From Oceanispirochaeta sp. (GTDB lineage Bacteria > Spirochaetota > Spirochaetia > DSM-2461): a stretch of 64,000 nt of DNA. Below the pieces are notes generated by a model. The model saw only the letters and a list, made by a program, of their open reading frames with translations, was not told the origin of the DNA and made no database searches. This document shows, one piece after another, positions 8,661-62,959 of this stretch. The first letter of the stretch is position 1; every line of letters begins with the position of its first letter. The position numbers and the translations under genes are program-made. The stretch is from contig CAXXXD010000003.1 of the NCBI GenBank assembly GCA_963663385.2, forward strand, positions 256,001-320,000, in the 5' to 3' direction.

Positions 8661-8684
8661 CAGATATAGCAAACAGGAAGGACT

Positions 8685-9944: not shown

Positions 9945-9979
9945 GAAAGTTCCATAATTACAAATAGAGGAGGACGTAA

Positions 9980-10597: not shown

Positions 10598-11880
10598 CAT
10601 TTGTATTATTCGGTTCTCTTGTGCTGTTGCTTCTGGCAGCGGTTCCCATTGGTATTGCTCTGGGAACCGCATCAATCCTTACGATTTTCACATCCGATCC
10701 CATCAGTATAGAGTCTTTTACGCAGACAATGATCCAGGGGTTGAATTCCTTCCCCCTGATGGCGGTTCCCCTTTTTACTTTTGCCGGTGATATTATGGGG
10801 CGGGGCGGAATATCCAAACGTCTGTTGAATGTTACCGGTGTAATGTTCGGCCGCTTTAAGGGCGGTTTGGGTGTTGTCTCTATTGTTGCCTGTCTGTTTT
10901 TTGCGGCCATTTCCGGAACCGGATCCGCAACTGTTGCGGCTATCGGTCTGATAATGATCCCCGAGATGGTCCGTATGGGATATAATAAAGACTTTTCCGG
11001 TGCTCTGGTGGCAACTGCCGGTACGGTTGGGGTTATCATTCCCCCCAGTATCTGCATGGTTATCTATGCGGTAGCTGCAGGAACTTCTGTAACCGGTATG
11101 TTTATGGCCGGAATAGGCCCCGGACTGCTGGTGGGACTGGCTCTATCCATCTATACAGTTTTCTATTCTGCAAAGAAAGGGTATGAAGGGGATCAGACCC
11201 GCTACACCATGAAAGAAGTAGGGGCTATCTTTCTGGATGCCATTCCAGCACTTCTGGTTCCCGTAATTATTCTGGGCGGAATCTACGGCGGTGTATTTAC
11301 CCCGACAGAAGCGGCAGCCGTTGCGGCGGTATATGGTATTTTTGTCAGTGTTTTTGTCTATAAAGAGGTAAAACTGTCGGAGCTGCCGTTTATCGGATTC
11401 AATTCGGCACTGCTTTGCGCCGCGGTACTGGTTATTATCGGTATTTCATCCGGTTTCGGCCGGATACTGACTATCGCCAATATCCCTACAGCCATAGCCA
11501 ATTTTATTCTGGATATTACAACCAGCAAGTTTCTGATCCTGCTGTTTATCAATATTCTGCTGCTGATTGTGGGAACTTTTATGGAAACAAATGCGTCCAT
11601 AATTATTCTGGTGCCGATTCTGCTGCCTGTTGTTACTTCCCTGGGAGTTAATCCGGTACACTTTGGTGTCATGATGGTATTGAACCTTGCTATCGGTTTT
11701 GTGACACCGCCACTGGGTGCCAACCTTTTTATGGCCTGTCAGATTAGCGATATCAGGTTTGATGACATTGCCAAGGCAATTGTACCCTGGATTCTGGTTA
11801 TGGTAATCGTTCTGATGCTTGTAACCTATATCCCGGCAATTACGATGTGGCTGCCCAAGGTTATGGGTATCCCTATTTAG
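10594..11880 (+). CDS. dctM: TRAP transporter large permease
   Basis: AVPLF, FAAISG, IIPPS, FTPTEAA, TPPLGANL. Confidence 0.95.
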   Translation: MTFVLFGSLVLLLLAAVPIGIALGTASILTIFTSDPISIESFTQTMIQGLNSFPLMAVPLFTFAGDIMGRGGISKRLLNVTGVMFGRFKGGLGVVSIVACLFFAAISGTGSATVAAIGLIMIPEMVRMGYNKDFSGALVATAGTVGVIIPPSICMVIYAVAAGTSVTGMFMAGIGPGLLVGLALSIYTVFYSAKKGYEGDQTRYTMKEVGAIFLDAIPALLVPVIILGGIYGGVFTPTEAAAVAAVYGIFVSVFVYKEVKLSELPFIGFNSALLCAAVLVIIGISSGFGRILTIANIPTAIANFILDITTSKFLILLFINILLLIVGTFMETNASIIILVPILLPVVTSLGVNPVHFGVMMVLNLAIGFVTPPLGANLFMACQISDIRFDDIAKAIVPWILVMVIVLMLVTYIPAITMWLPKVMGIPI

Positions 11881-41980: not shown

Positions 41981-42143
41981 CCCCTCTCTGATCTCCCCTC
42001 AGGGGAGAAGTAATAAAAAACTTATTCCCCTCCTAAGGAGGGGGCAGGATGAGGCCTGTTTCCGGACCCCTTTCGATTTCCCCTCATGGGAGAAGTCATA
42101 CGAAACTTATTCCCCTCCTGAGGAGGGGGCAGGGGAGGTCCGG
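41981..42143. repeat. Tandem pair of BoxC/REP-like palindromic elements
   Basis: Units 41981-42054 and 42067-42138 share TCCCCTCA.GGGAGAAGT.ATA..AAACTTATTCCCCTCCT.AGGAGGGGGCAGG. Confidence 0.8.
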
Positions 42144-42223
42144 GGCTTCTTATTTCTAACAATTAAACAAAATATGTCACATCACACATACAGTAGAGAT
42201 CTGTCCTGAGAGGAGTCTTCATT

Positions 42224-45751: not shown

Positions 45752-46066
45752 ATGGATAAAGTAGCCTTCAGGATGCAGCTGAAAAAAGGATTTGAAGAGG
45801 AATACAGAAAAAGGCATGATGAGATCTGGCCGGAGCTCGTGGTCCTGTTGAAGGGGCAGGGGATTTCCGACTATTCCATATTCCTGGATGAGGAGACCGG
45901 AGTCCTTTTCGGAGTACAGACGGTCAGGGGGGATTCCGGATCTCAGGATATGGGGCAGAACCCTGTGGTTCAGAAGTGGTGGGAGTATATGGCGGATATC
46001 ATGGAAGTGAATGAGGATAACTCGCCTGTGACCATCCCCCTCAGGGAAGTGTTCTTCCTGAAATAA
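45752..46066 (+). CDS. rhaM: L-rhamnose mutarotase
   Basis: EY..RHDEIWPEL, DYSIFLD, KWW.YMADIM. Confidence 0.93.
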   Translation: MDKVAFRMQLKKGFEEEYRKRHDEIWPELVVLLKGQGISDYSIFLDEETGVLFGVQTVRGDSGSQDMGQNPVVQKWWEYMADIMEVNEDNSPVTIPLREVFFLK

Positions 46067-47108: not shown

Positions 47109-48164
47109 ATGAATGCAAGGGAAAGAGTCTTAGCTGTTTTAAACAGGGAAACACCGGATCGAACTCCTGTAGATATATGGCTGGTTCCCGAACTGGTTGA
47201 ACAGTTAAAAAAAGAACTGAATGTGGAAGATGAACTGGATATCTACCGTAAACTGGATGTGGATAAGATCGTCTGGCTCGGAATACCCTATAAAGGGGTT
47301 ATTCTTAAGGATCCCAATGAGCATCAGGAGACCAACCACTGGGGTGTCAAGTTTGAAGCGGTTCAGGCCAATCAGGGAGTGGAATACGGTGAGGTCTGCT
47401 TCAATCCTCTCAAGGAGATGAATGCGCCGGAAGAGCTGGATGCCTATCCCTGGCCCGATCCCGACGATTTTGATTATGTTACTGCTGCGGCGGAGGCAAA
47501 AGTTCTGGCGAAGGAGTTTGTTACTCTGGGACCCTGGGTCTCCCTCTTTGAGGTTTACTGCCAGATGCGCAGCCTGGAAGAAGCTCTGATGGATACGGTG
47601 ATGAATCCGGAATTCCTCCACAGGGCGCTGGATTATATTGCGGAATCCCAGGGGGAGATGGTGCGCCGCTTTCTGGAAGCTGCCGACGGGGCCATAGACC
47701 TGGTTTTTCTCAGCGATGATATGGGTTCTCAGAACAGCCTTCTGATGTCGCCTGATTCTTTTGATGAATTCCTCTTTCCCCGGATAAAAAAGTGGTGCGA
47801 TATGATTCACTCCTACGGAGCGAAAGTCCTGTTCCATACGGACGGAGCCTGCGAACCTGTTATTCCCCGTCTGATCGAAGCGGGTGTGGATGTGTTGAAT
47901 CCGATTCAGCATGTCTGTGACGGGATGGATTGTCAGTCGATCAAGGCGAAATATGGAGACCAGCTGATTTTTCACGGGGGAGTGGAGAACCAGAAGGTCC
48001 TGCCCTTTGGAACAGCTGCCGATGTGGCTGCCGAAACAAAAATGTGTCTGGATGAACTGGGGCCTGCGGGATATCTGCCCTGTTCCTGCCATTTCGCTCA
48101 GGCGGGAACTCCTGTTGAGAATATTATGGCTTTGATTGAGACGGTTCAGAATTACAGAGTGTAA
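47109..48164 (+). CDS. Uroporphyrinogen decarboxylase (URO-D/MtaA-CmuA) family protein of unknown function
   Basis: MNARERV...PDRTP, WPDP, SDDMGSQ, FHTDG, LNPIQ, FHGGV, TPVENI. Confidence 0.85.
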   Translation: MNARERVLAVLNRETPDRTPVDIWLVPELVEQLKKELNVEDELDIYRKLDVDKIVWLGIPYKGVILKDPNEHQETNHWGVKFEAVQANQGVEYGEVCFNPLKEMNAPEELDAYPWPDPDDFDYVTAAAEAKVLAKEFVTLGPWVSLFEVYCQMRSLEEALMDTVMNPEFLHRALDYIAESQGEMVRRFLEAADGAIDLVFLSDDMGSQNSLLMSPDSFDEFLFPRIKKWCDMIHSYGAKVLFHTDGACEPVIPRLIEAGVDVLNPIQHVCDGMDCQSIKAKYGDQLIFHGGVENQKVLPFGTAADVAAETKMCLDELGPAGYLPCSCHFAQAGTPVENIMALIETVQNYRV

Positions 48165-49113: not shown

Positions 49114-50367
49114 ATGAGTAATATGTATGAATATGCCAAAGAACAGTATGCGGAAATCGGCGTTGATGTTGATAAAGCCATAGATAAACTGAAAAAGATT
49201 TCTCTATCAGTACACTGCTGGCAGGGGGATGATGTAGGCGGATTTGAATCCCCCGATGCCACCCTTTCGGGCGGTGGTATTCAGGTTACAGGAAACTACC
49301 CGGGAAAAGCCCGTAATCTGGGTGAGCTGAAAAAAGATCTGGGGAAGATGTACAGCCTTATTCCCGGTCAGCACAGACTGAATCTGCATACCATCTACGG
49401 GGATTTTCAGGGAGAAAAAGTAGAGAGAAACAAGATAGATGTGAAGCATTTTCATTCCTGGGCGGACTGGGGAAAGGAAAACGGGATTAAACTGGACTTT
49501 AACGGCAGTTTCTTTTCCCACCCTCTTGCGGAAGACGGTTTTACCCTGAGCAGCAAAGATAAAAACATAAGGGATTACTGGATTGAGCATGCCAAACAGG
49601 CCAGAAAAATTACCGCTTATCTGGGAAACGAGCAGGGTTCTCCCTCTGTTCATAACCTGTGGGTTCCCGATGGAGCCAAAGACAATGTGGTGTGTCGAAT
49701 GGATCACCGGACCATACTGAAGGATGCACTGGATGAGATCTATTCCGTTGAATACAGCGATAAAGAGATTAAGGATGCGGTTGAGTGCAAACTCTTCGGT
49801 ATTGGAAGTGAATCTTATGTTGTAGGATCCCACGAGTTCTATATGGGGTATGCTCTTACAAGAAACAAACTCCTCTGTATGGATATGGGACATTTTCATC
49901 CCACAGAATCCGTAGCTGACAAAATTTCTTCTGTTTACCAGTTCCTGGACGAAGTTCTTCTTCACGTATCACGGCCTGTACGCTGGGATTCTGATCATGT
50001 GGTTACCCTGAACGACGAAGTATACGCCCTTATGCAGGAACTGGTACGATCCGGAAAAATTGACAGCACCTATATCGGGCTGGACTTTTTTGACGCTACC
50101 CTGAACCGTCTGGGTGCCTGGGTTGTCGGCGCCAGAGCCTCTCTGAAGGCTCTCCTTTTTGCTCTCCTCGAACCCTATTCACAGCTTAAAACCTATGAAG
50201 AAGCTAATAATAACTTTGGCCGTCTGGCTCTTCTGGAAGAAGTAAAAACAAAACCCTTCGGAGTTATCTGGGATCAGTACTGTCTGGAATCCGGAACGCT
50301 GACAGATCGGGAAATGCTTCAGGAAGTTCTCTCCTACGAAGAATCAGAAATGTCAGGGAGAAACTAG
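49114..50367 (+). CDS. rhaA: L-rhamnose isomerase
   Basis: SVHCWQGDDV, TGNYPGKAR, DAVECKLFGIGSESY, DMGHFHPTE, HVSRPVRWDSDHV, LDFFDA. Confidence 0.97.
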   Translation: MSNMYEYAKEQYAEIGVDVDKAIDKLKKISLSVHCWQGDDVGGFESPDATLSGGGIQVTGNYPGKARNLGELKKDLGKMYSLIPGQHRLNLHTIYGDFQGEKVERNKIDVKHFHSWADWGKENGIKLDFNGSFFSHPLAEDGFTLSSKDKNIRDYWIEHAKQARKITAYLGNEQGSPSVHNLWVPDGAKDNVVCRMDHRTILKDALDEIYSVEYSDKEIKDAVECKLFGIGSESYVVGSHEFYMGYALTRNKLLCMDMGHFHPTESVADKISSVYQFLDEVLLHVSRPVRWDSDHVVTLNDEVYALMQELVRSGKIDSTYIGLDFFDATLNRLGAWVVGARASLKALLFALLEPYSQLKTYEEANNNFGRLALLEEVKTKPFGVIWDQYCLESGTLTDREMLQEVLSYEESEMSGRN

Positions 50368-51474
50368 ATGAGTCTGGAAAAACTGATAAGCCTGTCCAAT
50401 GTATATGGGGCAGATCCGGAATATGTTATTGCCGGCGGGGGTAATACCTCCTGGAAGAATGATGTGTATATGTTTGTAAAAGGTTCCGGGACAGAGCTGG
50501 CTTCCATTAAAGAAGAGGGTTTTGTAAAGGTTGACCTGGCCAAACTGGACCAGATCTGGTCTAAATCCTATTCCAGTGATTCCGACCGGAGAGAGGAGGA
50601 GGTTCTGGCCGATCTGATGGCTTCCCGTTACCCTTCGGAAGGTTCCAAAAGACCCAGTGTAGAAACTCTTCTGCACGCTCTTCTGCCGTTCAACTATGTG
50701 GTTCATACCCATCCGGCCCTGGTAAACGGTATTACCTGCAGCAGAAAAGGAGCGGAAGCTGTAAAGAATCTATTTGGAGATTCAGCCATATGGGTTCCCA
50801 TTACAAATCCCGGTTATATCCTGGCCAAAGAGGTTAAGGATGAAATTGAAAAGCATAGGACCGCGGGGCATGATTTCCCCCAGATGATTTTTCTGCAGAA
50901 CCATGGGGTTTTTGTATCGGGAAATACAGAGCAGGAGATTGATTCCATCTATACAGATATGTTTCAGGCCATTAAAAAAGAGATTAAAACCTTTCCCGTT
51001 ACAGAAGAAATTCCTGTGGCAGAAAGGACTGCCGAAACTGTCTCTCTATCTGTTCAAGCCGTTCTTGATGGTGATCTGATGGTTAAGTCTTTTGCCAACA
51101 GGGATATCCTGTCCCTGTCTGAATCCCGGGAGGCTTTTGCACCTCTGGAACTGGCCATGACCCCGGACCATATTGTGTATTACGGATTTAAACCGGCTTA
51201 TGCAGAGGGGCTTGAAACTTTGGAAGATGCACTCTCCGCCTTTGTCGAAGAGAATGGAATGAATCCCCGTCTGCTTGTTGTCAAAGGGGTGGGGGCTTTT
51301 GCCATTAACAGCAGTGAATCCCTTACGGAGAAGGCACGGATGCTCTTTCTGGATGATGTGAAGGTAGCTGTTTACGCAGAGAGTTTCGGCGGGTATCAGT
51401 TTATGCCGCAGGATCAGATCGACTTTATACGAAACTGGGAAGTGGAGAAATACCGCGTTTCCCTGTCAAAATAA
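50368..51474 (+). CDS. Rhamnulose-1-phosphate aldolase, RhaE-type class II aldolase (no fused SDR domain)
   Basis: GGGNTS.K, KGSG, RPSVETLLH, HTH, NHG, TPDH, WEVEKYR. Confidence 0.82.
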   Translation: MSLEKLISLSNVYGADPEYVIAGGGNTSWKNDVYMFVKGSGTELASIKEEGFVKVDLAKLDQIWSKSYSSDSDRREEEVLADLMASRYPSEGSKRPSVETLLHALLPFNYVVHTHPALVNGITCSRKGAEAVKNLFGDSAIWVPITNPGYILAKEVKDEIEKHRTAGHDFPQMIFLQNHGVFVSGNTEQEIDSIYTDMFQAIKKEIKTFPVTEEIPVAERTAETVSLSVQAVLDGDLMVKSFANRDILSLSESREAFAPLELAMTPDHIVYYGFKPAYAEGLETLEDALSAFVEENGMNPRLLVVKGVGAFAINSSESLTEKARMLFLDDVKVAVYAESFGGYQFMPQDQIDFIRNWEVEKYRVSLSK

Positions 51475-51498
51475 GAGAAACAGGATAAGAGAGTCATT

Positions 51499-52992
51499 AT
51501 GGAATATGCCATTGCCGTACTGGATATTGGAAAGACCAACAAAAAAATCGTTATATATGATGAGAAGCTTAATCAGATAGATTCTGTTTACAAGTCCATC
51601 CCGACTATTCAATTTGAAGAACTGGATGTGGAAAATACTCAAAGGATTGAGGACTGGTTCTATGAAAATCTGAAGGCTCTGAGTCAGAAATATGATATTC
51701 GCAGCCTTTCCGTTTCTGCTCATGGAGCAACCTGTGCCTGTGTAGATAAAGCGGGCGAATTGGCTGTTCCTGTTGTGGCTTATACCAATGAAGTTCCCGA
51801 GGATTTTCATGATAAGTTCTATGAGCTGGTCGGCAATTGTCATACTCTGCAGAGAGAAACCGGTACGGCCCAGGTCAAACCCCTGATTAACCTGGCCCAG
51901 CTGATCTATTTTCTGCAGAAACGATTTCCCTCGGACTATGAGAAAACGGACAGGATTCTCCCTTACGCCCAGTTTTTCGGGTACAAACTGACCGGTAAGG
52001 CCGCAGCCGATTATACCTATACGGGCTGTCATACCTACCTGTGGGATTTTGATAAGTGGCAGTGGTCTTCTGTAGCCGAAAAGCTGGGTATACTGCCTAA
52101 GCTGCCGGAAAAATTGAAGAATCCGGCGGATATTCTGGGCACCATAAGTCCCGAAATGGCTTTGCGCACTGGCCTTAAACCTGAAACTATCGTGACGGTG
52201 GGGCTCCATGATTCGAATTCCTCCCTCATACCCTATCTGGTTAAAGGAGAAAAGGACTTTATCCTTAACTCCACCGGTACCTGGTGTGTGGTAATGCATC
52301 CTACAAGGGAGTATTCCTTTAGTGAGGAAGAGATAGGGAAAACAGTCTTTTATAATATTTCTGCCCGGCAGGAACTGGTTAAAACGGCCATTTTTATGGG
52401 TGGGCTGGAATTTGAAAACTATATGACAATTCTTCAGAACTTGAATAATACGGATGAATACCCCGGCTTCAACAGGGATATTGTACAGTCTGTTCTGGAT
52501 AAAAACTGCGATTTCATTGTTCCCGGAGTTGTACGGGGGGCTGGTCAGTTTCCCGATTCAAAACCCGGCGTGTACGAAGGGGAGAGGTTTTATTCCCTGA
52601 AAGATATACGAAACGGTCAGGTTCCTGCCTTCTTTTCAGATTTCAGATACGCCCATGCTGTTCTGAATCTTTCTCTGTTAATGCAGACATCTGTAGCTCT
52701 GGACAGGGTTTCTGCTCAAGCTGGAACTCCCATCTATATAGAGGGGGGATTTCGTAAAAACGATGTGTACAAACGGCTGATTGCTTCTTTGTATCCGGAT
52801 TCTCCTGTGTATACCACCAGTATTAAAGAGGCTTCCTCCTATGGGGCCGCCATAGCGGGTAAGGCGGCGTATGATGATGTGGAGCTGGAAGACCTGGCGG
52901 ATCTGGTAAGAATTGATATGAATCCGGTTGAAGCTGTGGGGTTGGAAGGGTTGAAGGATTATAGAACAGCGTTTATGAAGAAAATAAGATAA
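51499..52992 (+). CDS. FGGY-family carbohydrate kinase (putative rhamnulokinase)
   Basis: VLDIGKTNKK, HGA, GCHTYLW, GLHDSN, STGTW, FMGGLEF. Confidence 0.85.
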   Translation: MEYAIAVLDIGKTNKKIVIYDEKLNQIDSVYKSIPTIQFEELDVENTQRIEDWFYENLKALSQKYDIRSLSVSAHGATCACVDKAGELAVPVVAYTNEVPEDFHDKFYELVGNCHTLQRETGTAQVKPLINLAQLIYFLQKRFPSDYEKTDRILPYAQFFGYKLTGKAAADYTYTGCHTYLWDFDKWQWSSVAEKLGILPKLPEKLKNPADILGTISPEMALRTGLKPETIVTVGLHDSNSSLIPYLVKGEKDFILNSTGTWCVVMHPTREYSFSEEEIGKTVFYNISARQELVKTAIFMGGLEFENYMTILQNLNNTDEYPGFNRDIVQSVLDKNCDFIVPGVVRGAGQFPDSKPGVYEGERFYSLKDIRNGQVPAFFSDFRYAHAVLNLSLLMQTSVALDRVSAQAGTPIYIEGGFRKNDVYKRLIASLYPDSPVYTTSIKEASSYGAAIAGKAAYDDVELEDLADLVRIDMNPVEAVGLEGLKDYRTAFMKKIR

Positions 52993-53090
52993 CAGCTCAA
53001 ACAGGAAAGAAGAGAATCCCGGAGGACAGAATCCAGTCAATCTCTGTAGTAGGTTGATAACTGAAAGATTGAACGTCCTCCGGAGAGTCC

Positions 53091-53119
53091 AAAAAAACCG
53101 GATTCACAAAGAATCCGGT
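53091..53119 (-). terminator. Terminator of the minus-strand sulfatase-rhaM operon
   Basis: ACCGGATTC-ACAAA-GAATCCGGT with an A-run on the + strand (U-tract on -). Confidence 0.7.
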
Positions 53120-53141
53120 ACTAATTCCTGTAGTTTTGATT

Positions 53142-53468
53142 TCAACTATCGAAGTAGAATATTTCCTTCAGGGGGATGGTAACCGGTGAGTTATCCTCAT
53201 TAACTTCCATAATATCGGCCATATACCTCCACCACTTCTGAACAACAGGATTCTTACCGAGATCCTGACTGCCGGAATCACCAGCTATTTTCTGGACTCC
53301 GAAAAGGGTTCCTGACTCTTCATCCAGAAATATGGCGTAATCAGAAATTCCCTGTTCCTTTAATAGAACCAGGAGTTCAGGCCAGATCTCATCATGGCGA
53401 TTTTTATACTCCATTTCATTCCCCTTCTTCAGCTGCATTTTAAAGGCGGCCCTATTCCCATTACTCAT
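53142..53468 (-). CDS. rhaM: L-rhamnose mutarotase, second copy
   Basis: RHDEIWPEL, KWWRYMADIM; GAGAGG RBS before ATG 53468. Confidence 0.9.
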   Translation of the reverse strand: MSNGNRAAFKMQLKKGNEMEYKNRHDEIWPELLVLLKEQGISDYAIFLDEESGTLFGVQKIAGDSGSQDLGKNPVVQKWWRYMADIMEVNEDNSPVTIPLKEIFYFDS

Positions 53469-53575
53469 TTTACAACCTCTCCCCATCACCTGGATTTCAA
53501 TTTTTTGGTCCTTTTTTATTCTACCCATAATTACAGGTGGAATGGCTTCCAATCCCTTTTCATTCTGATTTATAA

Positions 53576-55102
53576 CTATTCCGTAGCATTAGGCAGAGCC
53601 TCGCTGATAAAGGCTTTTCCAGATGGGACAATATAGTCTGTAACCCCTCTCGAAAAGGCAAACTGATGCAGCCTGCCAAGAGGCCGGGCGATAAAGGGAT
53701 ACTTCACCAGATCGTCGTCCTGAACCATACTCTGCAGATCTGTTTCAGTCCCGCACTTTTTTGCGGCCTGAAAGCGCAGACGTTCCGCTATATCTTTTTC
53801 CCGGACGATAAGATTTTCCATTTCAGCCGGATCCTCGTTCAGGTTGAAAAGCTGTTCCCTGCCGCCGTTGGCCATATAGATATACTTCCACTGTTTATGG
53901 CGCACCATCAGCTTGAACTGACGGGTCTCGGGTCTGCCGTGAAAGGAGAAAAGGAAATCCCTTTTATCCTCCAGGATATCGATACCGTCCCGTACATCCT
54001 TTTTGCCGCCCAGCTTGGTAGCCAGGCCAAACAGATCAGTCAGGCTGACAAGATCATCGGATTTGGTGTTACCTTTCAGCAGGGCCGGATAGCTTACAAT
54101 GAAGGGGATTTTAACAGAGGGTTCATAAAAACACTCCTTCTGCCAGGCGTGATGATCTCCCAGCATATCCCCGTGATCCGTAAAAAAGCAGATCATCGTG
54201 TTGTCCGCATCGGGGTGTTTCTCAACTTCATCCAGAATGCGTCCTATGCAGGAGTCGATATAGGAGATCTCCCCGTAGTAGCGGGTTCTGAGATTCCGGG
54301 CCCAGGCATCATTAATCTCATCCGAATAGACGATATAGTTCATCCAGGGGATCTGCTCGTCGTAGTGGTCGTCCGCCAGATCGCCCTTGATCGGATCGGG
54401 CATACCGTCAGGGTCATACATTCTGTTGTAGGGAATGGGCGGTGCACAGGGAGGATGGGGGCCTATAAAGGAAACCAGCCCGAAGTACGGCCGCTCATCC
54501 TGAACTTTCAGCTGCTCGATTGTTCTGTCTGCCACAAAGCTTTCTACAGTCAGTTCTTCAGGCAGAGGGCTGACCTGGGGAGCATAGTACATATTGGTCC
54601 GCTCCCCGTGGAGCTGTTCCAGATGTCCGTATTCGGGGTGTTCCTGCTCTATGTAGCCGGCAAAACCGTCCCGGCTTCTCAGTTCGGGGCTGTCCCACAT
54701 CTCTTCCGTGTGGATATGGGTTTCATACCCGAGCTCTTCGTACTGGTCCGGAAAGGTATGGAATTTGCCTATACCGAAGGTCCGGTATCCCAGTTTCCCC
54801 ATAACCCGGGGGAGGTAGGGTCCCGACCAGTTCTCCATACCTTCCTCCCCGGTTTTCTGGGGATTCTGAGGCTCTTCATTGCAGTAGCAGCCCATTGTAC
54901 AGGAGTCCCGCCCCGTCCGTATGCTGTAACGGGCGGGTATACAGACCGGGCAGGAGGAGTAGGCATTGGTATAGGTTACACCCCTTTCGACAAGACGGTC
55001 CAGATTCGGTGTCTGAATTGTTGAATTCCCCAGGGAGGAGATGCAGTCATAGCGGAACTGGTCGCACATGAGATAGAGTATATTTGGTTTCTTCCTATTC
55101 AT
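53576..55102 (-). CDS. Cytoplasmic formylglycine-dependent (S1) sulfatase
   Basis: PNILYLMCDQ, CIPAR..TG (CxPxR), GKFH, PHPP, DHG, K; no signal peptide. Confidence 0.92.
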   Translation of the reverse strand: MNRKKPNILYLMCDQFRYDCISSLGNSTIQTPNLDRLVERGVTYTNAYSSCPVCIPARYSIRTGRDSCTMGCYCNEEPQNPQKTGEEGMENWSGPYLPRVMGKLGYRTFGIGKFHTFPDQYEELGYETHIHTEEMWDSPELRSRDGFAGYIEQEHPEYGHLEQLHGERTNMYYAPQVSPLPEELTVESFVADRTIEQLKVQDERPYFGLVSFIGPHPPCAPPIPYNRMYDPDGMPDPIKGDLADDHYDEQIPWMNYIVYSDEINDAWARNLRTRYYGEISYIDSCIGRILDEVEKHPDADNTMICFFTDHGDMLGDHHAWQKECFYEPSVKIPFIVSYPALLKGNTKSDDLVSLTDLFGLATKLGGKKDVRDGIDILEDKRDFLFSFHGRPETRQFKLMVRHKQWKYIYMANGGREQLFNLNEDPAEMENLIVREKDIAERLRFQAAKKCGTETDLQSMVQDDDLVKYPFIARPLGRLHQFAFSRGVTDYIVPSGKAFISEALPNATE

Positions 55103-55105
55103 AAC

Positions 55106-55846
55106 TTACCACCATTTAATCAGATCTGTTACCTGATTCCTTAAATCCACAAAATCCTGACTGGACACCTTACGGGGACGGGGCAGATCATTCATCAATT
55201 CTGTTTTAATTTTGGTTGGTTTATTGGTCATAACCAGAATTCTGTCGCTCAGGTAGACGGCCTCTTCAATATTATGAGTAATAAAAACAATGGTTGTTTT
55301 TGTCTTTTCCCACAGGTTCAGCAGTTCGTCCTCCAGTTTGTACTTTAAATTTAAATCCAGCTGTCCGTAGGGTTCATCCATTAACAGAAGATCCGGCTTT
55401 GTCGCAAAAGCCCTGGCGATCACCACCCTCTGCAGCATACTGGCAGACAGTTCGCCGGGGTAGTACTTTCTGTGGCTTTCCAGGTTTACCATGGCAATGG
55501 CTTCTTCTACCCTTTCGTCTATCGTATTTTGATCATATCCCTTGATCTTCAGGCCGTAGGCGATGTTCTGCTCCACATTCAGCCAGGGGAAGGTGGAATA
55601 TTCCTGAAGGATATAGGCCAGATGGTGTTTTCTGGGGTCCACATCTTCACCATCCAGTTTGATTGATCCGCTGTTGATATCGATAATCTTTGTCAGACTG
55701 TTCAGAAAGGTTGTTTTTCCGCACCCGGTCGGTCCGACGATGACAAGGAATTCACTCTCTTTGACGGAAAAAGAGATATTATCCAGTACAAGAAGATCAC
55801 CATAGCTCTTGGTCAGGTTTTGAACCTGTACTTTTTCTTTGACCAT
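55106..55846 (-). CDS. NitT/TauT/SsuB-type ABC ATP-binding protein
   Basis: GPTGCGKTT, LSASMLQR, MDEPYG, FITHNIEEA. Confidence 0.9.
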   Translation of the reverse strand: MVKEKVQVQNLTKSYGDLLVLDNISFSVKESEFLVIVGPTGCGKTTFLNSLTKIIDINSGSIKLDGEDVDPRKHHLAYILQEYSTFPWLNVEQNIAYGLKIKGYDQNTIDERVEEAIAMVNLESHRKYYPGELSASMLQRVVIARAFATKPDLLLMDEPYGQLDLNLKYKLEDELLNLWEKTKTTIVFITHNIEEAVYLSDRILVMTNKPTKIKTELMNDLPRPRKVSSQDFVDLRNQVTDLIKWW

Positions 55847-56638
55847 TTATACACCCTCCCTTAAATCAACCAGGGAACTGATCTCTTCTCTCAGTTCAAG
55901 AAATTCCGGTGCAACCAGACTGCGGGGGCGGGGAAGGTCTATTATATACTCTTTCAGGATTTTTGCCGGACACTCTGTTAAGATGACGATTCTGTCTGCC
56001 AGATAAAGGGCTTCTTCTATGTTGTTCGTTACAAAGATGACCGTTCTTTTCTCTTTTTCCCAGATCTTTTCAACTTCCTCTTCCATCATGTAGCGGGTCT
56101 GGGCATCCAGGTGGCCGAAAGGCTCATCCATCAGGATAATTTCAGGATCGTCGCAGTAGGCGCGGGCGATTCCCACCCTCTGCTGCATGCCTCCGGACAG
56201 CATAACCGGATAGTGCTTTTCAAAACCCTTCAGACCAACCAGATCGATATAGTACCGGGCCTTCTCCTGTCTCTCTTTTCTGGAGATCCCCTTTGCTTTG
56301 GGGCCGAACTCGACATTTCCCATAACCGAAAGCCAGGGGAAAAGGGCTGTTGTCTGGTAAACCATCCCGACCCGTGAATCAAAACCTGTCATAGGTTTGT
56401 CTTCGATGGATATCTGACCTTTCGTAACCGATTCCAGCCCGGCCAGCATTTTCAGCAGGGTCGTTTTTCCGCACTGCCCGGCGCCGAACAGAACCAGGAA
56501 TTCATTCTCTTTTATATCCAGGGATATATCATCAAGAATCAGGGCTTCTCCCCCTTCGGTCTGGAAGGATTTGGATGCATTCTCCAGATTGATGATATTC
56601 TTTGTATTATTTAGCGGCTTCGTACTGACCATCTGCAC
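55847..56638 (-). CDS. NitT/TauT/SsuB-type ABC ATP-binding protein
   Basis: GAGQCGKTT, LSGGMQQR, MDEPFG. Confidence 0.9.
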   Translation of the reverse strand: MQMVSTKPLNNTKNIINLENASKSFQTEGGEALILDDISLDIKENEFLVLFGAGQCGKTTLLKMLAGLESVTKGQISIEDKPMTGFDSRVGMVYQTTALFPWLSVMGNVEFGPKAKGISRKERQEKARYYIDLVGLKGFEKHYPVMLSGGMQQRVGIARAYCDDPEIILMDEPFGHLDAQTRYMMEEEVEKIWEKEKRTVIFVTNNIEEALYLADRIVILTECPAKILKEYIIDLPRPRSLVAPEFLELREEISSLVDLREGV

Positions 56639-57405
56639 AACCTCCTCTCAATCTCTCTTAAAACAGAAGCCAGAATCAGTCCGACGGCTCCGATGGCAAT
56701 CATGCCGATTACGTTATTTTCAATTCTTCCCGTCTGCATTCCTGCCAGGATCAGCCATCCGGCTCCTTCTCTTGCGGTAATCATTTCGGCAGCCAGAACG
56801 GCCATCCAGCTTGTGGAAAGAGAGGTCTGCAGACCTGTAAAAATATAGGGGACGCTGTAGGGAAGTACGATTTTTCTGAATATCTGGTTTTCTCTGGCCC
56901 CCAGCACTTTGGCTACCCCGATCAGTTCCCTGCTGACATGCTGGGCCCCATCCATGGTATTCATAACCATCTGGGAGAAACCTCCCATAAAGATAATGAA
57001 ATAGATCGTGGGTTCTCCGATACCAATCCATAGAATAGCCAGAGGTATCCAGGCGATTCCGGGAATAGGGCGGATTATACTGAACAGGGGATAGATAATG
57101 GCATGAGCCATTTTTGAATGCCCCATGGCCAGACCGATCAGAATTCCGGTAAGGGATGAGAGAATGTATCCGACCAGAACCCTCTTTAAACTGACCAGTA
57201 TATGTCCCAGCAGGGTATATTTACCAATCGGATTAATAAAGGCTGAAAAAAATGCCTTAAAGGAAAATACGGGAGTAGGAAAGATTTTCCCGAAATTGGT
57301 AAAAAGGCAGGCTATATGCCAGAGAAACAGGAATATAAGGATTCCCAGGAATCCGTACATCCAGGTATCCCTGGAATCTTTTGTCAAAACTATTTTAGGC
57401 ATCAT
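56611..57405 (-). CDS. NitT/TauT/SsuC-type ABC permease
   Basis: SLKRV..G, RPIPGIAWIP, LGA, VLAAEM. Confidence 0.9.
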   Translation of the reverse strand: MMPKIVLTKDSRDTWMYGFLGILIFLFLWHIACLFTNFGKIFPTPVFSFKAFFSAFINPIGKYTLLGHILVSLKRVLVGYILSSLTGILIGLAMGHSKMAHAIIYPLFSIIRPIPGIAWIPLAILWIGIGEPTIYFIIFMGGFSQMVMNTMDGAQHVSRELIGVAKVLGARENQIFRKIVLPYSVPYIFTGLQTSLSTSWMAVLAAEMITAREGAGWLILAGMQTGRIENNVIGMIAIGAVGLILASVLREIERRLCRWSVRSR

Positions 57406-58175
57406 CTTCGGCCTCCTTTTACAAACTTCCTTTCCAGAAAGCTTAGGGTTTCCATCATTACAGCTCCGAAAACTCCGATAACCAGAACACCCACGAATAC
57501 AACGTCAATTCTTCCGACCAGGCGGGCCATCTGAATCATAAAGCCGAGGCCTTTGGTTGAGGCAATCAGTTCGGCTGCAACAAGGGATACCCATGACCCG
57601 TTTAAGGCTACTCTGGCACCGGTAAAAATCATGGGAGCTGCCGAAGGGATGGCCGTTGTAAACAGAACCTGACGATTGGATGCTCCAAAGGTGAGAGCTA
57701 CCCATTTATGTACATCCTTCGTCTGTTTTATCCCGCTGTAGGAATTGATAACAGCCGGTATAAAGGAAGCAATAAAGATTACCGAAACCTTGGACATGAT
57801 TCCTATTCCAAAAAAGGTGATCATAATGGGAACCCAGCCGACAGGCGGGATGGGTTTAATCAAATCGAACAGAGGCCGGAAGAATTTGTCGAACTTATCG
57901 AACCAGGCCATGCTTATACCCAGGGGGACTCCAATAACGATTCCAAAAAAGAATCCGATCAATGCTTCTTTCAGGCTGGTCCAGATATGAATGCCCAATA
58001 CATTCCCGTCGGGATTTTTATTGCTCAGCTTATATATGAACGTATCAAACAGTTTGATCGGAGTAGGCAGTTTTTTGGCTGATATTATTCCTGCTGTCGA
58101 TATGAGCTGCCAGAGGAATATAAATACCAGTAATGAAGCTATTGAAATCAGTATGTATTTTGTTTTCTCTTTCAA
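57402..58175 (-). CDS. NitT/TauT/SsuC-type ABC permease
   Basis: LPTP, KPIPPVGWVP, FGAS, LVAAELI..GLG. Confidence 0.9.
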   Translation of the reverse strand: MKEKTKYILISIASLLVFIFLWQLISTAGIISAKKLPTPIKLFDTFIYKLSNKNPDGNVLGIHIWTSLKEALIGFFFGIVIGVPLGISMAWFDKFDKFFRPLFDLIKPIPPVGWVPIMITFFGIGIMSKVSVIFIASFIPAVINSYSGIKQTKDVHKWVALTFGASNRQVLFTTAIPSAAPMIFTGARVALNGSWVSLVAAELIASTKGLGFMIQMARLVGRIDVVFVGVLVIGVFGAVMMETLSFLERKFVKGGRR

Positions 58176-58200
58176 TTTCTTATCCTTGTAATAATACTTT

Positions 58201-58341
58201 CACCCCCTCCCTCATCCCCGGCCCTTCTCCCAGAGGGAGAAAGGATAATAGCCATATGTTTTTTTTAAAATAAAGGTATTTTACCCCCTCTCCCCTCTGA
58301 TCCCTGAGCGGAGCCGAAGGGGGAGAGGGCGGGGTGAGGGC
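58201..58341. repeat. BoxC/REP-like element with nested CCCTGAGCGGAGCCGAAGGG motif
   Basis: CCCTCATCCCCGGCCCTTCTCCCAGAGGGAGAAAGG...CCCCTCTCCCC...GGGGAGAGGGCGGGGTGAGGG. Confidence 0.7.
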
Positions 58342-58416
58342 TGGATGAAAGCTGTCGAATTGCTACATCAATTCATATGTTATAGTCTTTGCTATATGGA
58401 AATCGAATCAATGCTT

Positions 58417-59457
58417 TCAGTCAGCGAGTACGTCTTTCCAGAGGTCGTCAACCACATTCTTTTTGAACATTTCAGCCTGTTCGGGTTCAATGTTTCCAAT
58501 GTAGGCATAGAAGTCGGCAATGGCGGATTCGGGTTTACCGTATTCCATGGATTTCTGTACTTCAGGGGTAATCAGAATTCTCAGTTTGGCTTCCTGCAGG
58601 GCCGCTGTCAGATCACCTTCCCGGCCGTTTTCTTCATACCACTTAACAAGCATTTTGGCTTTCAGGTTATGATCGGCTTCCAGTTCTTCCGCGGCACGGT
58701 AGACAAGACTCATATAGGTTTTGATAGCTTCCTGTTTGCTTTCGTAAGCTTCTCTGGAAACAATCAGGTCTCCCGTGGACATGACAAAGTCAGACAGGGT
58801 AGCGATGGGGACCCATCCGTATTTGTCTTCAACAGTCAGTGACCAGGGAGTGGGGAAAGCAGCTATATCGCCTTCGCCAGTTGCAAAAACCTGCTCTCCC
58901 GTCTGATAGTCCATGGGGACTGTGTTCACATCATCTACAGCTACACCAATTCGTTCCAGGTACTCAATAACCAGCTGATGCAGGGAGGTTCCCGGGGCAT
59001 ATATGATGGTTTTGTCTTTAACTGTTTCAGGGCTGCCGAAAACACCGGGATAGGTTGGATTAAAACCTTTATCTTTCAGTATATCGCTGTCGGCCCTTAC
59101 AAAAAGAGTGTCACCGCGGGTTTCTTCATAGTTTCCCACAAGTTTTGCATCCGTATTGATTACTCCGAATACATAAGCGGCTCCCTGGAACCCGATATCC
59201 CACAGGCCGGCAGCCAGAGCTTCGTTGGCTGTTGAACCGTTGGAATAAACCTGAAGGTCAATATCAAGCCCTGCTTCTTCCGCCCATCCTTTGTCTCTGA
59301 TATACATGGCTACCACACCGTTGAAATAGGGCTGGACCATAACGCCTAACCTGGCTTTTGCTTCAGTACTCGCGGATTCTCCGTCTTCCTGTGTGCCATT
59401 GGCGAAAAGGGGAACAAATATGGCAAATGCCAACAGAACTGCTAATAGTTTTTTCAT
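58417..59457 (-). CDS. SsuA/TauA-like ABC substrate-binding protein
   Basis: Signal peptide, KGWAEEAGLDI, EALAAG..D, GTS.H, P.PW. Confidence 0.85.
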   Translation of the reverse strand: MKKLLAVLLAFAIFVPLFANGTQEDGESASTEAKARLGVMVQPYFNGVVAMYIRDKGWAEEAGLDIDLQVYSNGSTANEALAAGLWDIGFQGAAYVFGVINTDAKLVGNYEETRGDTLFVRADSDILKDKGFNPTYPGVFGSPETVKDKTIIYAPGTSLHQLVIEYLERIGVAVDDVNTVPMDYQTGEQVFATGEGDIAAFPTPWSLTVEDKYGWVPIATLSDFVMSTGDLIVSREAYESKQEAIKTYMSLVYRAAEELEADHNLKAKMLVKWYEENGREGDLTAALQEAKLRILITPEVQKSMEYGKPESAIADFYAYIGNIEPEQAEMFKKNVVDDLWKDVLAD

Positions 59458-59706
59458 AGTAACTCCTTAATCGTTTTGTAATATTATCTGTTCAGCTTTT
59501 CCCTAAAAGATAGTAAGAATGAAGCCCTCTTTTTTCCCTATTCAGTATGCCGTAAAATTCCGGTTCGGGATGTTTGTATAATTCCGGTGACGGATTATAA
59601 CGATTCCGTAAGTTATCCTTCAACGGGCAGCAATTTTCAGTCAATTTCAGCATCCTTCCTTGCTCTTTCGGGTATCGGTGTTAGAATGGAATCACGATAA
59701 GGCGCT

Positions 59707-61485
59707 GTGGTGAAAAGAAAAAACAAACTGAAACTTCATACCATTCTATCCATTTTCATCTCTTTAATCCTGCTATGCATTATCCCCGGATTGGGTCAGC
59801 TGTCTCTGTCTCTGTTTAAAAACAGAACAATTGAAAGCTTTGCCGACAGCCGACAGGATACGTTATTGCAGATAAGCGAAAGCGTTACGGATTACTGCCG
59901 GAAAATCGAACTCCTTTCCTCTTCCTATTCCAGTATAGATTATATACGGGATCAGGCCGCCCTTCCTGAAGATCGTATAGACATCAGTGAGTTCCGGGGG
60001 CGCATCGACAGCTTGAAAACCGATATTGACAGGTCTTTCTTCTTTCCGGAAATTGAATACGAACTGCAGATCCTGTGCATGAACGGATTATCCTACTCAT
60101 CCAATATGGATCATATGTCCACCCTTATGGGCCTGCCTCGTACAATCTGGTTTTATCGTGCCATGAAAAATAATGAGGATACCCTCTGGCAGTCAAATAT
60201 CCTGTTTAAGGCAGATGACAAAAAGACAAATGTCATTTCTCTTGTCAAGTTAATCAGGGATTCTGAAGGGAGCACCAATGGAGCTATTTTAATTAATCTG
60301 GATGAACGGCAGCTTCACCGGATTTACTCCCAGATAATCGGATTCCAGAGTACCATATATCTGGTTGATAAAAACGGACAGATCGTCTCGCATCCGACTC
60401 TTTCAATGGTTGGCCGTTTTTTCTATGATATGGAAATATTTAATGCATTCTTCCAGGAGAAGGACTGGGCTCAAATCACTAAATCAGAAAAGGAGTACCT
60501 TTTTTCCCGGTTCTCATCCGGGGACAACCCCTGGATCGTTGTAGAAGAGATCCCTCTGGCTGTTCTGACCAATCCGCTTGTTGATATTACAAAGACAATT
60601 AACTTTATGACGGTTATTCTGCTTCTCCTCACCCTTATTATTGCTGTGTTTTTTTCCAGAATGGTGTCCCGTCCTTTTGAAAGGCTGGCGGATACGATGG
60701 AATCGGCCGGCAAGGGGGACATTTCGGTTAGTTTCAGTCAATCCGGATGTCAGGAATCATGCCTGATGGCTGAGAGCAGCCAGAATTTTGTTATCCGGAT
60801 TCAATCCCTTATTGATGAGGTCAAGAAGATTCAGCAGGAAAAGCAGAACAGTGAGCTTGAATTCCTGCAGATGCAGATAAACCCCCACTTCATCTATAAT
60901 ACCCTGTTTTCCATCCGCTGTATGGTAGATATGGGAGGTAATGAGAAAGCCAGTGAAATGACAACGCGTTTTTCCAGTATGCTTCAGAAAGTTCTGCGTA
61001 TTAAATCACCCATGATAACAATCATGGATAATATTGATTATCTGGAAGACTACAGTTTTATTTTATCCCAGAGGTTTGGTTCCCTCTCTCTGGATTACGA
61101 GGTTGAAAAGGGGATAGAAAAGGAAAGAATATTGAAGTTTATTCTGCAACCCCTGGTTGAAAACAGTGTATTTCATGGTTTTTCTGACGGGTTCAGGGAA
61201 GATTCATTTATAAGGATCTCTTTTCACAGGTGCGGATCGGATTTTCTGGAGATTACTGTAAGTGATAACGGCTGCGGGATGTCGGAGGATCTGATTGGAA
61301 GTATCCTGAATTCCAGGGAAGTTAAAAGAGAGAACCATATCGGTCTGCTGAATGTCCATAAAAAACTTCAGCTCTATTATGAAGGCCGTGCTTCATTGAA
61401 GATAGAATCCCAAAAAGGGGAAGGTACAGATATACATATCATTGTTCCCAGAACTCTGGAGGAATATGAAAATACTGATTGTTGA
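59707..61485 (+). CDS. Sensor histidine kinase (YesM-like; Cache/HAMP)
   Basis: 2 TM segments, LQMQINPHFIYNTL, QPLVENSVFHG, DNGCG, HIGLLNV. Confidence 0.9.
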   Translation: MVKRKNKLKLHTILSIFISLILLCIIPGLGQLSLSLFKNRTIESFADSRQDTLLQISESVTDYCRKIELLSSSYSSIDYIRDQAALPEDRIDISEFRGRIDSLKTDIDRSFFFPEIEYELQILCMNGLSYSSNMDHMSTLMGLPRTIWFYRAMKNNEDTLWQSNILFKADDKKTNVISLVKLIRDSEGSTNGAILINLDERQLHRIYSQIIGFQSTIYLVDKNGQIVSHPTLSMVGRFFYDMEIFNAFFQEKDWAQITKSEKEYLFSRFSSGDNPWIVVEEIPLAVLTNPLVDITKTINFMTVILLLLTLIIAVFFSRMVSRPFERLADTMESAGKGDISVSFSQSGCQESCLMAESSQNFVIRIQSLIDEVKKIQQEKQNSELEFLQMQINPHFIYNTLFSIRCMVDMGGNEKASEMTTRFSSMLQKVLRIKSPMITIMDNIDYLEDYSFILSQRFGSLSLDYEVEKGIEKERILKFILQPLVENSVFHGFSDGFREDSFIRISFHRCGSDFLEITVSDNGCGMSEDLIGSILNSREVKRENHIGLLNVHKKLQLYYEGRASLKIESQKGEGTDIHIIVPRTLEEYENTDC

Positions 61486-62959
61486 TGATGAAATGATGAT
61501 CAGGGAGTGGTTGAAATATACGATAGAAACACTTGAGTTTGAAATCACCCGAATAGAAACGGCATCCAATGGTATGGAAGCTCTGGAAAAGGTTAAAAGT
61601 TGCCGGTATGATCTGATCTTTATTGATATCACCATGCCTAAAATGGATGGGATTGAACTTTTGAAAAGAATATACGAACAGGCTGTCGATTCAATGCTGA
61701 TTGTTTTAAGCAGTCACGATGAATTCCGGTTTGCCAGAGAAGCTATAAAATACAACATAAAAGAGTACGTACTGAAAAATGAGTGTTCAAAAGAAAAACT
61801 AACTGAGATCCTGGCTTCCTGCCGGGAGAAGATAGGTAATCGGCAACCGGGCGAAAGTCTGACACAGGAGTTTATGGAGCGTGTTCTGAATAATCATGCG
61901 CCGGCAAAGGGTTTAAGCCTGATTCAGGCGATGTTTCCGGCAATTCAGGGAAAGCTGTTCTTTACCGTGGCTATTCAGATAGACCCGAAGGACCTGCAGA
62001 GGAAATATGGTGCAGGTAGTTTTTCTTTAGACCTGGAAGGCCTTATCGGCAATAACGGAAAGCTTTCATTCTATCTGTTCAGTATCGAAAGTCGTGATAA
62101 GTCAGGTAATTACAACTACGATTATGCCCGGCTTTTATCCGAAAGTCTGGATAAAAAGGTTTCCTGCGGCAGGCTGTGCAGGACCGCGGATGATATCCTT
62201 CCTGAATGCCGGAACAGCTGGGTTGGGTATCAAAGCCTTTTCTACAGTGGCAAACAATACTGTTCAGGACATAATGAGTTCCGGGATTTTAATACAACGG
62301 CTGTTGATAACCTTTGTGAAACAGTTATTTCTGATATAAGATCCTATCTAAAAGAGAAAACCCTGAGGAATTTTCAGGACTTAAACCGGTTCTTTTCCGG
62401 TTCCTGTCCCTCAGATGTAGAGTCGGTTATTAATATTTATCAGGCTTTGTTAAATACATTCTTTATATACAATAATACCCAATCCCGTACTATTACAAAA
62501 GAATTGAATACAATCAGAGCGACAATCAGCGGCTTTGAAGATTTCGGAAGTTTATCCGGATGGGTTATCCGAACAATAGAAAACAGTACGGATCTGGTAG
62601 ACCGGGTAAAATACTCTCCTGCAGTAGAGAATGCTATTGAATTTATTGAATTGAATTTTCAGACAATTTCCAGTGTGAATGAAATAGCCGATCATGTGAA
62701 TTTGAGTCTGGACTACTTCTCCCGCCTTTTTAAAAAAGAGGTGGGGGATACATTGAATTCCTATCTGATCAATTTCCGGCTGAATAAGGCATCAATGATC
62801 CTGATTTCCAGTAACCTGTCCATACAGGAGGTGGCAGAACGTGTCGGCATTGAAAACGGAAGTTATTTTTCCAAGTGTTTTAAAAAGAAATTTCATACAC
62901 AGCCTATACAGTTCAGGATTCAGACAAAGCAGACTGGAGGGGATATCGAATCTCAATAA
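61466..62959 (+). CDS. Response regulator with AraC output (YesN-like)
   Basis: VDDE, DITMP, LK; YFSRLFKKE, YFSKCFKK. Confidence 0.92.
   Translation: MKILIVDDEMMIREWLKYTIETLEFEITRIETASNGMEALEKVKSCRYDLIFIDITMPKMDGIELLKRIYEQAVDSMLIVLSSHDEFRFAREAIKYNIKEYVLKNECSKEKLTEILASCREKIGNRQPGESLTQEFMERVLNNHAPAKGLSLIQAMFPAIQGKLFFTVAIQIDPKDLQRKYGAGSFSLDLEGLIGNNGKLSFYLFSIESRDKSGNYNYDYARLLSESLDKKVSCGRLCRTADDILPECRNSWVGYQSLFYSGKQYCSGHNEFRDFNTTAVDNLCETVISDIRSYLKEKTLRNFQDLNRFFSGSCPSDVESVINIYQALLNTFFIYNNTQSRTITKELNTIRATISGFEDFGSLSGWVIRTIENSTDLVDRVKYSPAVENAIEFIELNFQTISSVNEIADHVNLSLDYFSRLFKKEVGDTLNSYLINFRLNKASMILISSNLSIQEVAERVGIENGSYFSKCFKKKFHTQPIQFRIQTKQTGGDIESQ

Follow-up and report, generated by a model that had tools for sequence, protein, structure and literature searches.

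The window analysed here, 64,000 nucleotides of an Oceanispirochaeta genome (positions 256001-320000 of contig C3, genome label G000; genome of 5.3 Mb, 98% complete), contains a minus-strand gene run in which genes for an ABC importer are followed by a sulfatase gene and by rhaM2, a second L-rhamnose mutarotase gene, facing a rhamnose cluster. It is highly probable that a small sulfate ester is imported by this system and desulfated in the cytoplasm, and the cargo is likely to be a sulfated sugar. We propose that a heterodimeric NitT/TauT-type ABC importer would be switched on by a two-component system, a dCache sensor kinase with an AraC-type response regulator, and that the SsuA/TauA-like periplasmic binding protein of the importer would capture a small organic sulfate ester. 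Inside the cell, the sulfate would be split off by a leaderless S1 sulfatase, for which the single anSME of the genome would act as cytoplasmic maturase. The best single cargo candidate may be L-rhamnose sulfate, for example Rha3S freed from ulvan-type glycans by other organisms, in which case desulfation would yield a sugar for the appended RhaM2 and, after it, for the neighboring RhaA-aldolase-kinase route. Taken as a whole, namely as a self-contained, horizontally spread sulfate-ester module with rhamnose sulfate as its best cargo, this explanation has in our judgement close to an even chance of being right.

A preliminary description of the window had listed a binding protein, two permeases, two ATPases, a signal-peptide-less CxPxR sulfatase and a second rhaM on the minus strand, together with a divergent two-component system and a convergent rhaA-aldolase-kinase cluster, and profile searches recover every one of these where it had been placed (Table 1). 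From permease 1 to the sulfatase, the intergenic distances are -28 to +3 nt. The best NCBIfam models are TauC (166 bits), NtrB and SsuC for the permeases and TauB (208 bits) and NtrCD for the ATPases, all under their equivalog cut-offs, while the binding protein reaches 70 bits against an SsuA_fam cut-off of 163.5. The AlphaFold2 model of the binding protein (pLDDT 90) has TauA (6SSY) and SsuA (3KSX) as its nearest solved folds, with E ~1e-16. Judged by these matches, the transporter is a NitT/TauT family ABC importer with heterodimeric membrane and ATPase parts. It shares the binding-protein fold and the permease and ATPase families with TauABC and SsuABC, but differs in its heterodimeric parts and in having no component that reaches an equivalog cut-off. 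Sulfonates are split by oxygenases, not sulfatases. As TauA and SsuA bind small organosulfonates, the fold argues for a monomer-sized anion as the cargo. The N-terminus of the sulfatase is MNRKKPNILYLMCDQ, without a leader, so that the catalytic core starts at once, and its formylglycine motif, C54-I-P-A-R58, is invariant in all 14 aligned homologues.

To define the conserved unit, orthologous modules were collected from a one-genome-per-species scan (nine loci, binding protein 71-86% identical) and from whole-genome searches (two more), and the flanks of the resulting 11 loci were examined for up to 10 kb. All 11 have the order binding protein - permease - permease - ATPase - ATPase. At the ten that extend past the sulfatase (the eleventh ends before it), the sulfatase comes next, is 64-81% identical and ends the operon. 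The divergent kinase (43-76% identical) and the regulator lie upstream in 10/11 loci, the other, L008, being cut within the kinase (dCache ORF). The same gene order in ten loci out of ten is more than chance, and the conserved unit is regulators, ABC importer and sulfatase. The flanks vary by locus, with hydrogenase, TRAP or Tct transporters, GH2, GH4, LRR proteins and others.

Named relatives of the window proteins are spirochaetes (Oceanispirochaeta, Spirochaeta and Sphaerochaeta). The module is rare and patchy, and a sample of 401 genomes of the class yielded it in 8, from three families. The binding protein is 80-86% identical across these three families and is thus more alike than RhaA, for which same-genus genomes show 60-62% identity to the window's, which fits horizontal spread. 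The binding-protein family is small, with 42 proteins at E<=1e-10 in a word-indexed search. Binding proteins of 53% identity occur in Clostridium sp. D5, Muricomes (sp. OA1) and Faecalicatena, where the accession of a 61%-identical sulfatase is exactly five after or before that of the binding protein; this accession spacing suggests that the same six-gene cassette is present in gut Lachnospiraceae. All eight module genomes have RhaA, against a background of 60-100% in their families and 161/401 in the class. Because that background is high, co-occurrence of module and RhaA at the genome level says nothing either way and was dropped as evidence.

Cytoplasmic desulfation extends beyond the window. 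The genome has 14 sulfatase genes, and in 14/14 at most about 30 residues of the frame, none of them forming a hydrophobic leader, precede the conserved core. Eleven lie operon-like beside an importer, eight of them with CUT1 ABC systems, two following TctCBA and one with the ABC importer of the window, and three are without an adjacent importer. One anSME is present (TIGR03942, 381 bits versus a cut-off of 349; G000:C2:834501-835562), which by this profile match is a maturase able to make formylglycine in the compartment of the sulfatase. The coupling of an anion-type ABC importer to cytoplasmic desulfation, put forward in the preliminary description, is borne out by the conserved synteny, the leaderless sulfatases and the single anSME. 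As a prediction from gene content, import with cytoplasmic desulfation is well supported, and cytoplasmic desulfation is by the same token a general habit of the organism. Sulfated algal and host glycans are a large pool of carbon and sulfur. In current models, primary degraders remove the sulfate before it can reach the cytoplasm, either in the periplasm or on the cell surface. A diderm anaerobe with 14 sulfatases, none with a leader and most following an importer, contrasts with these models. In addition, no GH88/105 and no PL40 were found in the genome, and GH78/GH106 matches are marginal, which fits a monomer scavenger for which free monomer alone would be usable. As a separate observation, the pairing of tripartite tricarboxylate transporters with sulfatases is unusual.

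A precedent exists in Bifidobacterium breve UCC2003, in which a free sulfated monosaccharide from other microbes, GlcNAc-6-sulfate, is imported and desulfated intracellularly, a case of cross-feeding (PMC7326374, in excerpt). The contrast first drawn between the window system and periplasmic desulfation in Bacteroidota thus holds, but the strategy is not new. Both systems would perform cytoplasmic desulfation of an imported sulfated monosaccharide; they differ in sugar and habitat, and the B. breve cluster is not known to have a NitT/TauT ABC importer or a link to rhamnose genes. The periplasmic ulvan sulfatases of Formosa agariphila handle sulfated ulvan units next to rhamnosidase and mutarotase genes. 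They are weak relatives of the window sulfatase (S1_7, 6HHM, E 1.5e-26; GH78-S1_25, 6HR5, E 4.6e-22) and act outside the cytoplasm, on oligomers, within a Bacteroidota polysaccharide utilization locus, unlike an enzyme predicted to work in the cytoplasm after ABC import. What is new is the combination, in which a member of a mostly cytoplasmic sulfatase family is joined to a NitT/TauT importer with heterodimeric parts and to two-component control of the sugar type, whereas the principle is known. The literature searched held no description of the cassette or of a cytoplasmic rhamnose-sulfate sulfatase, and the excerpts of PMC13770419 (Celeribacter) and PMC6431674 (Alteromonas 76-1) had no bearing on the cassette.

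The nature of the ester was approached through known systems. In Pseudomonas aeruginosa, the NitT/TauT-type importer AtsRBC imports sulfate esters, which the cytoplasmic Cys-type S1 sulfatase AtsA splits (PMC13015387, in excerpt). The window system is alike in joining a binding-protein-dependent NitT/TauT importer to a cytoplasmic Cys-type S1 sulfatase, and the likeness favors a system of the Ats or BetC type, in which the ester would not be a carbohydrate but an aryl sulfate, an alkyl sulfate or choline-O-sulfate, serving sulfur supply, osmolyte or choline use, or detoxification. Close homologues carrying the names 'choline-sulfatase' or 'arylsulfatase' in their sources, the Enterococcus faecium arylsulfatase 9KOQ as second-nearest structure, and the recurrence of URO-D/MtaA-like methyltransferase genes nearby would fit such a system as well. 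Ats belongs to a CysB-controlled sulfur-starvation regulon and has one permease and one ATPase. By contrast, there are here two permeases and two ATPases, and the regulators are of the dCache/AraC, sugar-type two-component kind, with no cys-regulon regulator, in an anSME-dependent anaerobe. Neither ATP-sulfurylase (PF01747) nor the NIR_SIR sulfite-reductase domain (PF01077) was found in the 98%-complete genome, although there are four PAPS_reduct matches, and sulfur supply is therefore an unlikely purpose. Moreover, AtsA is no more than a distant relative (1HDH, E 4.5e-16), and the sulfatase falls far under the cut-offs for the choline-sulfatase BetC (TIGR03417, 174.9 bits in two stretches versus 433.45) and for the arylsulfatase PRK13759 (278 bits versus 481), and the neighbors across its family are sugar importers and glycan enzymes. 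With this balance, we regard a non-carbohydrate ester as improbable.

Phosphonate monoester hydrolases are also among the nearer structures (2VQR, E 5e-33; 4UPH, rank 4 by fold). Together with a PehA match at E 4.7e-49 and a weak Phosphonate-bd match of the binding protein (E 6.8e-5, under the cut-off), they would be expected if the enzyme were in vivo a phosphonate-monoester or phosphodiester hydrolase and the ABC system imported an organophosphorus anion. However, the PehA match amounts to 167 bits against a cut-off of 900, the best sequence and fold matches are true sulfatases, and the binding-protein fold is nearest to sulfonate binders. As the other 13 paralogues in the genome fit one importer-plus-sulfatase pattern besides, an organophosphorus cargo is very improbable.

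A sulfated sugar is favored by related cassettes. At L014 (G026:C3:90000-109999), positions 4603-11275 encode LacI - NMT1-like binding protein - two permeases - two ATPases - sulfatase, beside a GH29 fucosidase and GH2. As the binding protein of this paralogous cassette is 29% identical and its sulfatase is of another subfamily, the design of heterodimeric NitT/TauT importer plus sulfatase serves more than one cargo. At L019, a 55%-identical sulfatase follows a CUT1 ABC importer, with the same type of two-component regulator. Both cassettes point to sugars. A sugar cargo is favored as well by the MFS_2 transporter genes that adjoin family sulfatases at L036, L039, L062, L065 and L088. To our knowledge, anion-type (NitT/TauT) ABC systems are not known to carry sugars.

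The nearest solved sulfatase is BT1918 (S1_46, 7OZ8), with a sequence E of 5e-44 and a Foldseek E of 1.8e-30 at rank 1; the two proteins are about 27-33% identical (about 27% in the structural alignment). BT1918 is a 3S-GlcNAc sulfatase of S1_46 (10.1101/2021.07.23.453482 and PMC10154620, both in excerpt). The window enzyme thus has an enzyme for a monosaccharide 3-O-sulfate as its nearest solved relative, and its D309-H310 correspond to the D-H metal-site pair common to BT1918, but BT1918 is Ser-type and the window sulfatase Cys-type. BT1918 is presumably exported in Bacteroides. The stretch 90-105 of BT1918, which according to the source includes an N-acetyl-binding tyrosine, aligns poorly, with a 10-residue gap, and residue numbers there are not mapped with certainty. 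A mapping of the BT1918 specificity residues (Y94, N174, R327, Y408 and Q292) was dropped, as their numbering was not reconcilable with the alignment.

Support for rhamnose in particular comes from the position of rhaM2, from the adjacent rha cluster and from ulvan and rhamnose genes that recur around the sulfatase family in unrelated lineages. The rhaM2 ORF as listed, 53142-53552(-), has a TTG start and is matched by the RhaM profile from residue 34 on. Translation probably starts at the ATG at 53468, with GGGGAGAGG ahead of it, giving a product of 108 amino acids that passes as RhaM/YiiL (TIGR02625, 113.2 bits versus an equivalog cut-off of 99.6). The original assignment as a second rhaM is therefore kept, with a length of about 108 rather than 136 residues and a 107-nt spacer separating it from the sulfatase. 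In this spacer no terminator-like hairpin appeared in our scan; rhaM2 is co-oriented with the operon, a strong terminator-like hairpin follows it, and none precedes it, consistent with possible co-transcription. The spacer upstream of rhaM2 and the other rha or module control regions have no common word longer than 9 nt. RhaM2 and RhaM1 (45752-46066) are 77% identical in amino acid sequence, and the nucleotide match is confined to the coding region. A complete rhamnose route is encoded in the genome, with rhaM present three times. RhaA (49114-50367, E 5e-178) is convergent on the operon, and a RhaS-type ABC importer with rhaM1 lies further upstream in the rhamnose region. Contigs from two public studies, possibly the source of this DNA, span 51000-56500 without difference.

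Some features of the rhamnose region stand apart from the question of cargo. Within 50368-52992, a stand-alone 368-aa aldolase resembles the N-terminal half of the fused aldolase/dehydrogenase, and the FGGY kinase beside rhaA matches rhamnulokinase models weakly (40 bits versus a cut-off of 528). Same-genus relatives retain araC-rhaA-aldolase, and no homologue of the FGGY kinase was found adjoining it. Immediately upstream of the rhamnose region, G+C is low (0.36-0.40), and this stretch holds two transposase genes, at 31734-33287 and 35727-37289 (DDE_Tnp_1_6, IS66 type).

To place the sulfatase in a wider family, 80 metagenome loci with 40-70% identical homologues were gathered. Neighbors were scanned with Pfam at 57 of these, picked by flank length and closeness to the window sulfatase, and the remaining loci were compared with the window's own proteins only. 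Among family members whose N-termini were checked, 15/20 are leaderless and 5/20 have twin-arginine-like leaders. In a FastTree phylogeny of 82 rows, in which supports are local only, the spirochaete clade (support 98) is nested among Clostridia sequences, and there is a basal clade of six (support 100). At two loci of this basal clade, L036 and L046, a homologue of PL40 ulvan lyase lies directly upstream of the sulfatase, with E values of 7.9e-170 and 6.5e-168 to Uly1040 (9VTK), and tblastn places PL40 directly upstream at L068 and L062 too. Uly1040 cuts ulvan, with delta-Rha3S as the main product (PMC12915356, in excerpt). MFS_2 follows the sulfatase at L036, L039, L062 and L065 in the basal clade and adjoins it at L088 outside the clade. 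The order of PL40 and leaderless sulfatase, with MFS_2 at L036 and L062, implies that Gram-negative degraders take up ulvan fragments and desulfate them in the cytoplasm.

Rhamnose-related genes accompany other members of the family as well. L065 reads sulfatase - MFS_2 - RhaM (144.9 bits) - GH78 rhamnosidase - second sulfatase; at L096, GH106 precedes the sulfatase and two URO-D-like genes follow it; and at L020 a PcRGLX-like protein is encoded near the sulfatase homologue. A homologue on a Halocatena plasmid (51%) is 3 kb from a rhamnosidase fragment, and one on Haloferax volcanii pHV3 (42%) is beside GH28 and 19 kb from GH88, RhaM and annotated rhcB-F rhamnose genes. We also considered the ulvan plasmids of Alteromonas as a source of homologues and rejected them, as a search of 72,556 plasmids at E<=1e-60 returned only 7 haloarchaeal records. 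Of 153 columns invariant in the spirochaete and Clostridia clade, the PL40 clade retains 126-130, and the genome's own paralogues only 71-82. By this measure of its sequences the sulfatase family is coherent, without this proving a single substrate. Two large neighbors, at L065:1968-4343 and L020:9536-12208, have no solved relative.

A number of observations weigh against rhamnose sulfate, and most of them would be accommodated if the same mechanism served another sulfated sugar monomer (GlcNAc, galactose, fucose or xylose sulfate) and rhaM2 and the rha cluster were neighbors by rearrangement only. No rhaM, rhaA, aldolase, kinase or RhaS was found at any of the ten orthologous modules within flanks of <=10 kb (best tblastn E 0.037), none of the 45 flanking ORFs belongs to a rha family, and DNA homology to the relatives stops exactly at the sulfatase stop codon. 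The expectation that homologous ABC and sulfatase genes would co-occur with rha genes thus failed at the orthologous loci, such genes being found only with distant members that have other importers. In a sister strain (run X6 of another study), a 29.6-kb contig has a clean 148-bp deletion, 53100-53247, that takes the terminator along with the final 35 codons of rhaM2; as its 3' end is deleted, rhaM2 is dispensable in that strain. The rhaM1 copy on the X6 contig (45764-46055) is rhaM2-like, with 13 differences in 241 versus 46 in this genome. Loss of rhaM2 is therefore possible, and the two rhaM copies, inverted and 7 kb apart, exchange sequence, which suggests gene conversion between them.

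Relationships of the sulfatase also count here. BT1918, the nearest characterized enzyme, acts on 3S-GlcNAc and not on rhamnose; the sister clade is from human-gut Lachnospiraceae, where rhamnose sulfate is not an obvious nutrient; and the L014 module adjoins a fucosidase. The relatives linked to rhamnose or ulvan are only 42-55% identical and belong to other FastTree clades, and the largest clade is from soil, with SAICAR synthase and methyltransferases as neighbors, which are not catabolic. Furthermore, adjacency to a sugar cluster is not rare, since sugar clusters are dense in this genome, and the window was flagged because of its rha adjacency, a selection effect. Set against another sugar are the recurrence of rhamnose and ulvan genes around the family in several unrelated lineages, the co-orientation of rhaM2 with no terminator-like site before it, and the poor alignment of the stretch that recognizes N-acetyl in BT1918. 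We consider another sugar monomer unlikely, though the least unlikely of the alternatives. The proposal of a rhamnose-sulfate cargo thus gains from distant family members near PL40 and MFS_2, near RhaM and GH78, near GH106 and in the Haloferax rhamnose island, and loses from the bare flanks of the orthologous modules and the X6 deletion. On these gene contexts we put the probability that rhamnose sulfate is the cargo at even or slightly below.

If rhamnose sulfate is the true cargo, the substrate would be defined for a widespread sulfatase family whose members occur in spirochaetes, gut Clostridia, ulvan loci with PL40 and haloarchaea, a substrate class would be added to the NitT/TauT transporters, and a concrete cross-feeding route on ulvan breakdown products would emerge. 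More tentatively, and with the chances somewhat against it, the family may be a new S1 subfamily, mostly cytoplasmic, with free L-rhamnose sulfate, or else ulvan fragments of minimal size, as its substrate. It would have been joined to NitT/TauT ABC importers in Spirochaetia and Lachnospiraceae, to CUT1 ABC importers, and to MFS_2 behind PL40, and would have spread to the rhamnose islands of haloarchaea as well. On this view the SsuA-like protein would be the first NitT/TauT member to bind a sugar sulfate, and anaerobic spirochaetes would be specialized consumers of monomers leaked by ulvan degraders. The sulfatase and the binding protein are small, soluble and directly testable.

Table 1. Features of the import and desulfation operon, its surroundings and related sulfatase loci
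Feature	Position	Strand	Evidence or remark
Sensor histidine kinase	59707..61485	+	Pfam dCache_1, His_kinase PF06580 and HATPase_c; divergent from transporter operon
Response regulator, receiver and AraC-type HTH (YesN-like)	61442..62959	+	Pfam
Divergent control region	59458..59706	.	Sigma-70-like site for minus strand at 59623-59594, 10/12 matches, consensus only
SsuA/TauA-like periplasmic solute-binding protein	58417..59457	-	NMT1 E 6e-8; signal peptide, no lipobox Cys
241-nt spacer with G+C-rich palindromic repeats, binding-protein gene to permease 1	58176..58416	-	Sequence read
Permease 1, TauC-like, BPD_transp_1	57402..58175	-	80-92% identical in related loci
Permease 2, NtrB/TauC-like	56611..57405	-	4-nt overlap with permease 1
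ATPase 1, TauB-like	55847..56638	-	Profile matches
ATPase 2, TauB/NtrCD-like	55106..55846	-	Abuts ATPase 1, zero gap
Leaderless Cys-type S1 formylglycine sulfatase	53576..55102	-	PF00884 E 5.7e-41; begins 3 nt past ATPase 2
rhaM2, L-rhamnose mutarotase	53142..53468	-	TIGR02625; add-on specific to this genome, 107 nt past sulfatase
Intrinsic-terminator-like hairpin, 9-bp G+C-rich stem and T run	53097..53119	-	Directly 3' of rhaM2
rhaA - class II aldolase - FGGY kinase, convergent	49114..52992	+	Neighboring context, outside conserved module
PL40 - leaderless sulfatase loci	L036:1492-7050, L046:1110-5211, L068:5133-9104, L062:1360-5777		MFS_2 next in L036 and L062
CUT1-linked sulfatases	Loci L099, L100, L102, L103, L105, L108		8 genes
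Sulfatase loci L099-L108, first set	C4:425000-438000, C2:1627000-1641000, C1:106000-118000, C2:358000-376000		And others
Sulfatase loci L099-L108, second set	C1:517000-529000, C2:997000-1009000, C2:1205000-1217000, C4:788000-800000		And others

Promoters and terminators were scanned for and compared with shuffled sequences, without overall enrichment (5 vs 10.9; 12 vs 7.6). Promoter-like sites were fewer than in the shuffles, the site at 59623-59594 being a consensus match only, and of the sites scanned we rely only on the one strong hairpin downstream of rhaM2. Palindromic repeats of the CCCCTC...GAGGGG type, two units each, occur at 41981-42223 and 58176-58416. Both elements follow binding-protein genes, that at 41981-42223 following the rhamnose binding-protein gene, and both come before membrane-component genes; they may be REP-like mRNA stabilizers, attenuators or partial terminators. 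Finally, URO-D/MtaA-like genes recur in sugar and sulfatase loci, at 47109-48164 and 7617-8660 in the window and at L096:7224-9220 and L003:3482-4528. The genome has about ten such paralogues, one of which lies inside the rha cluster between two AraC regulators.

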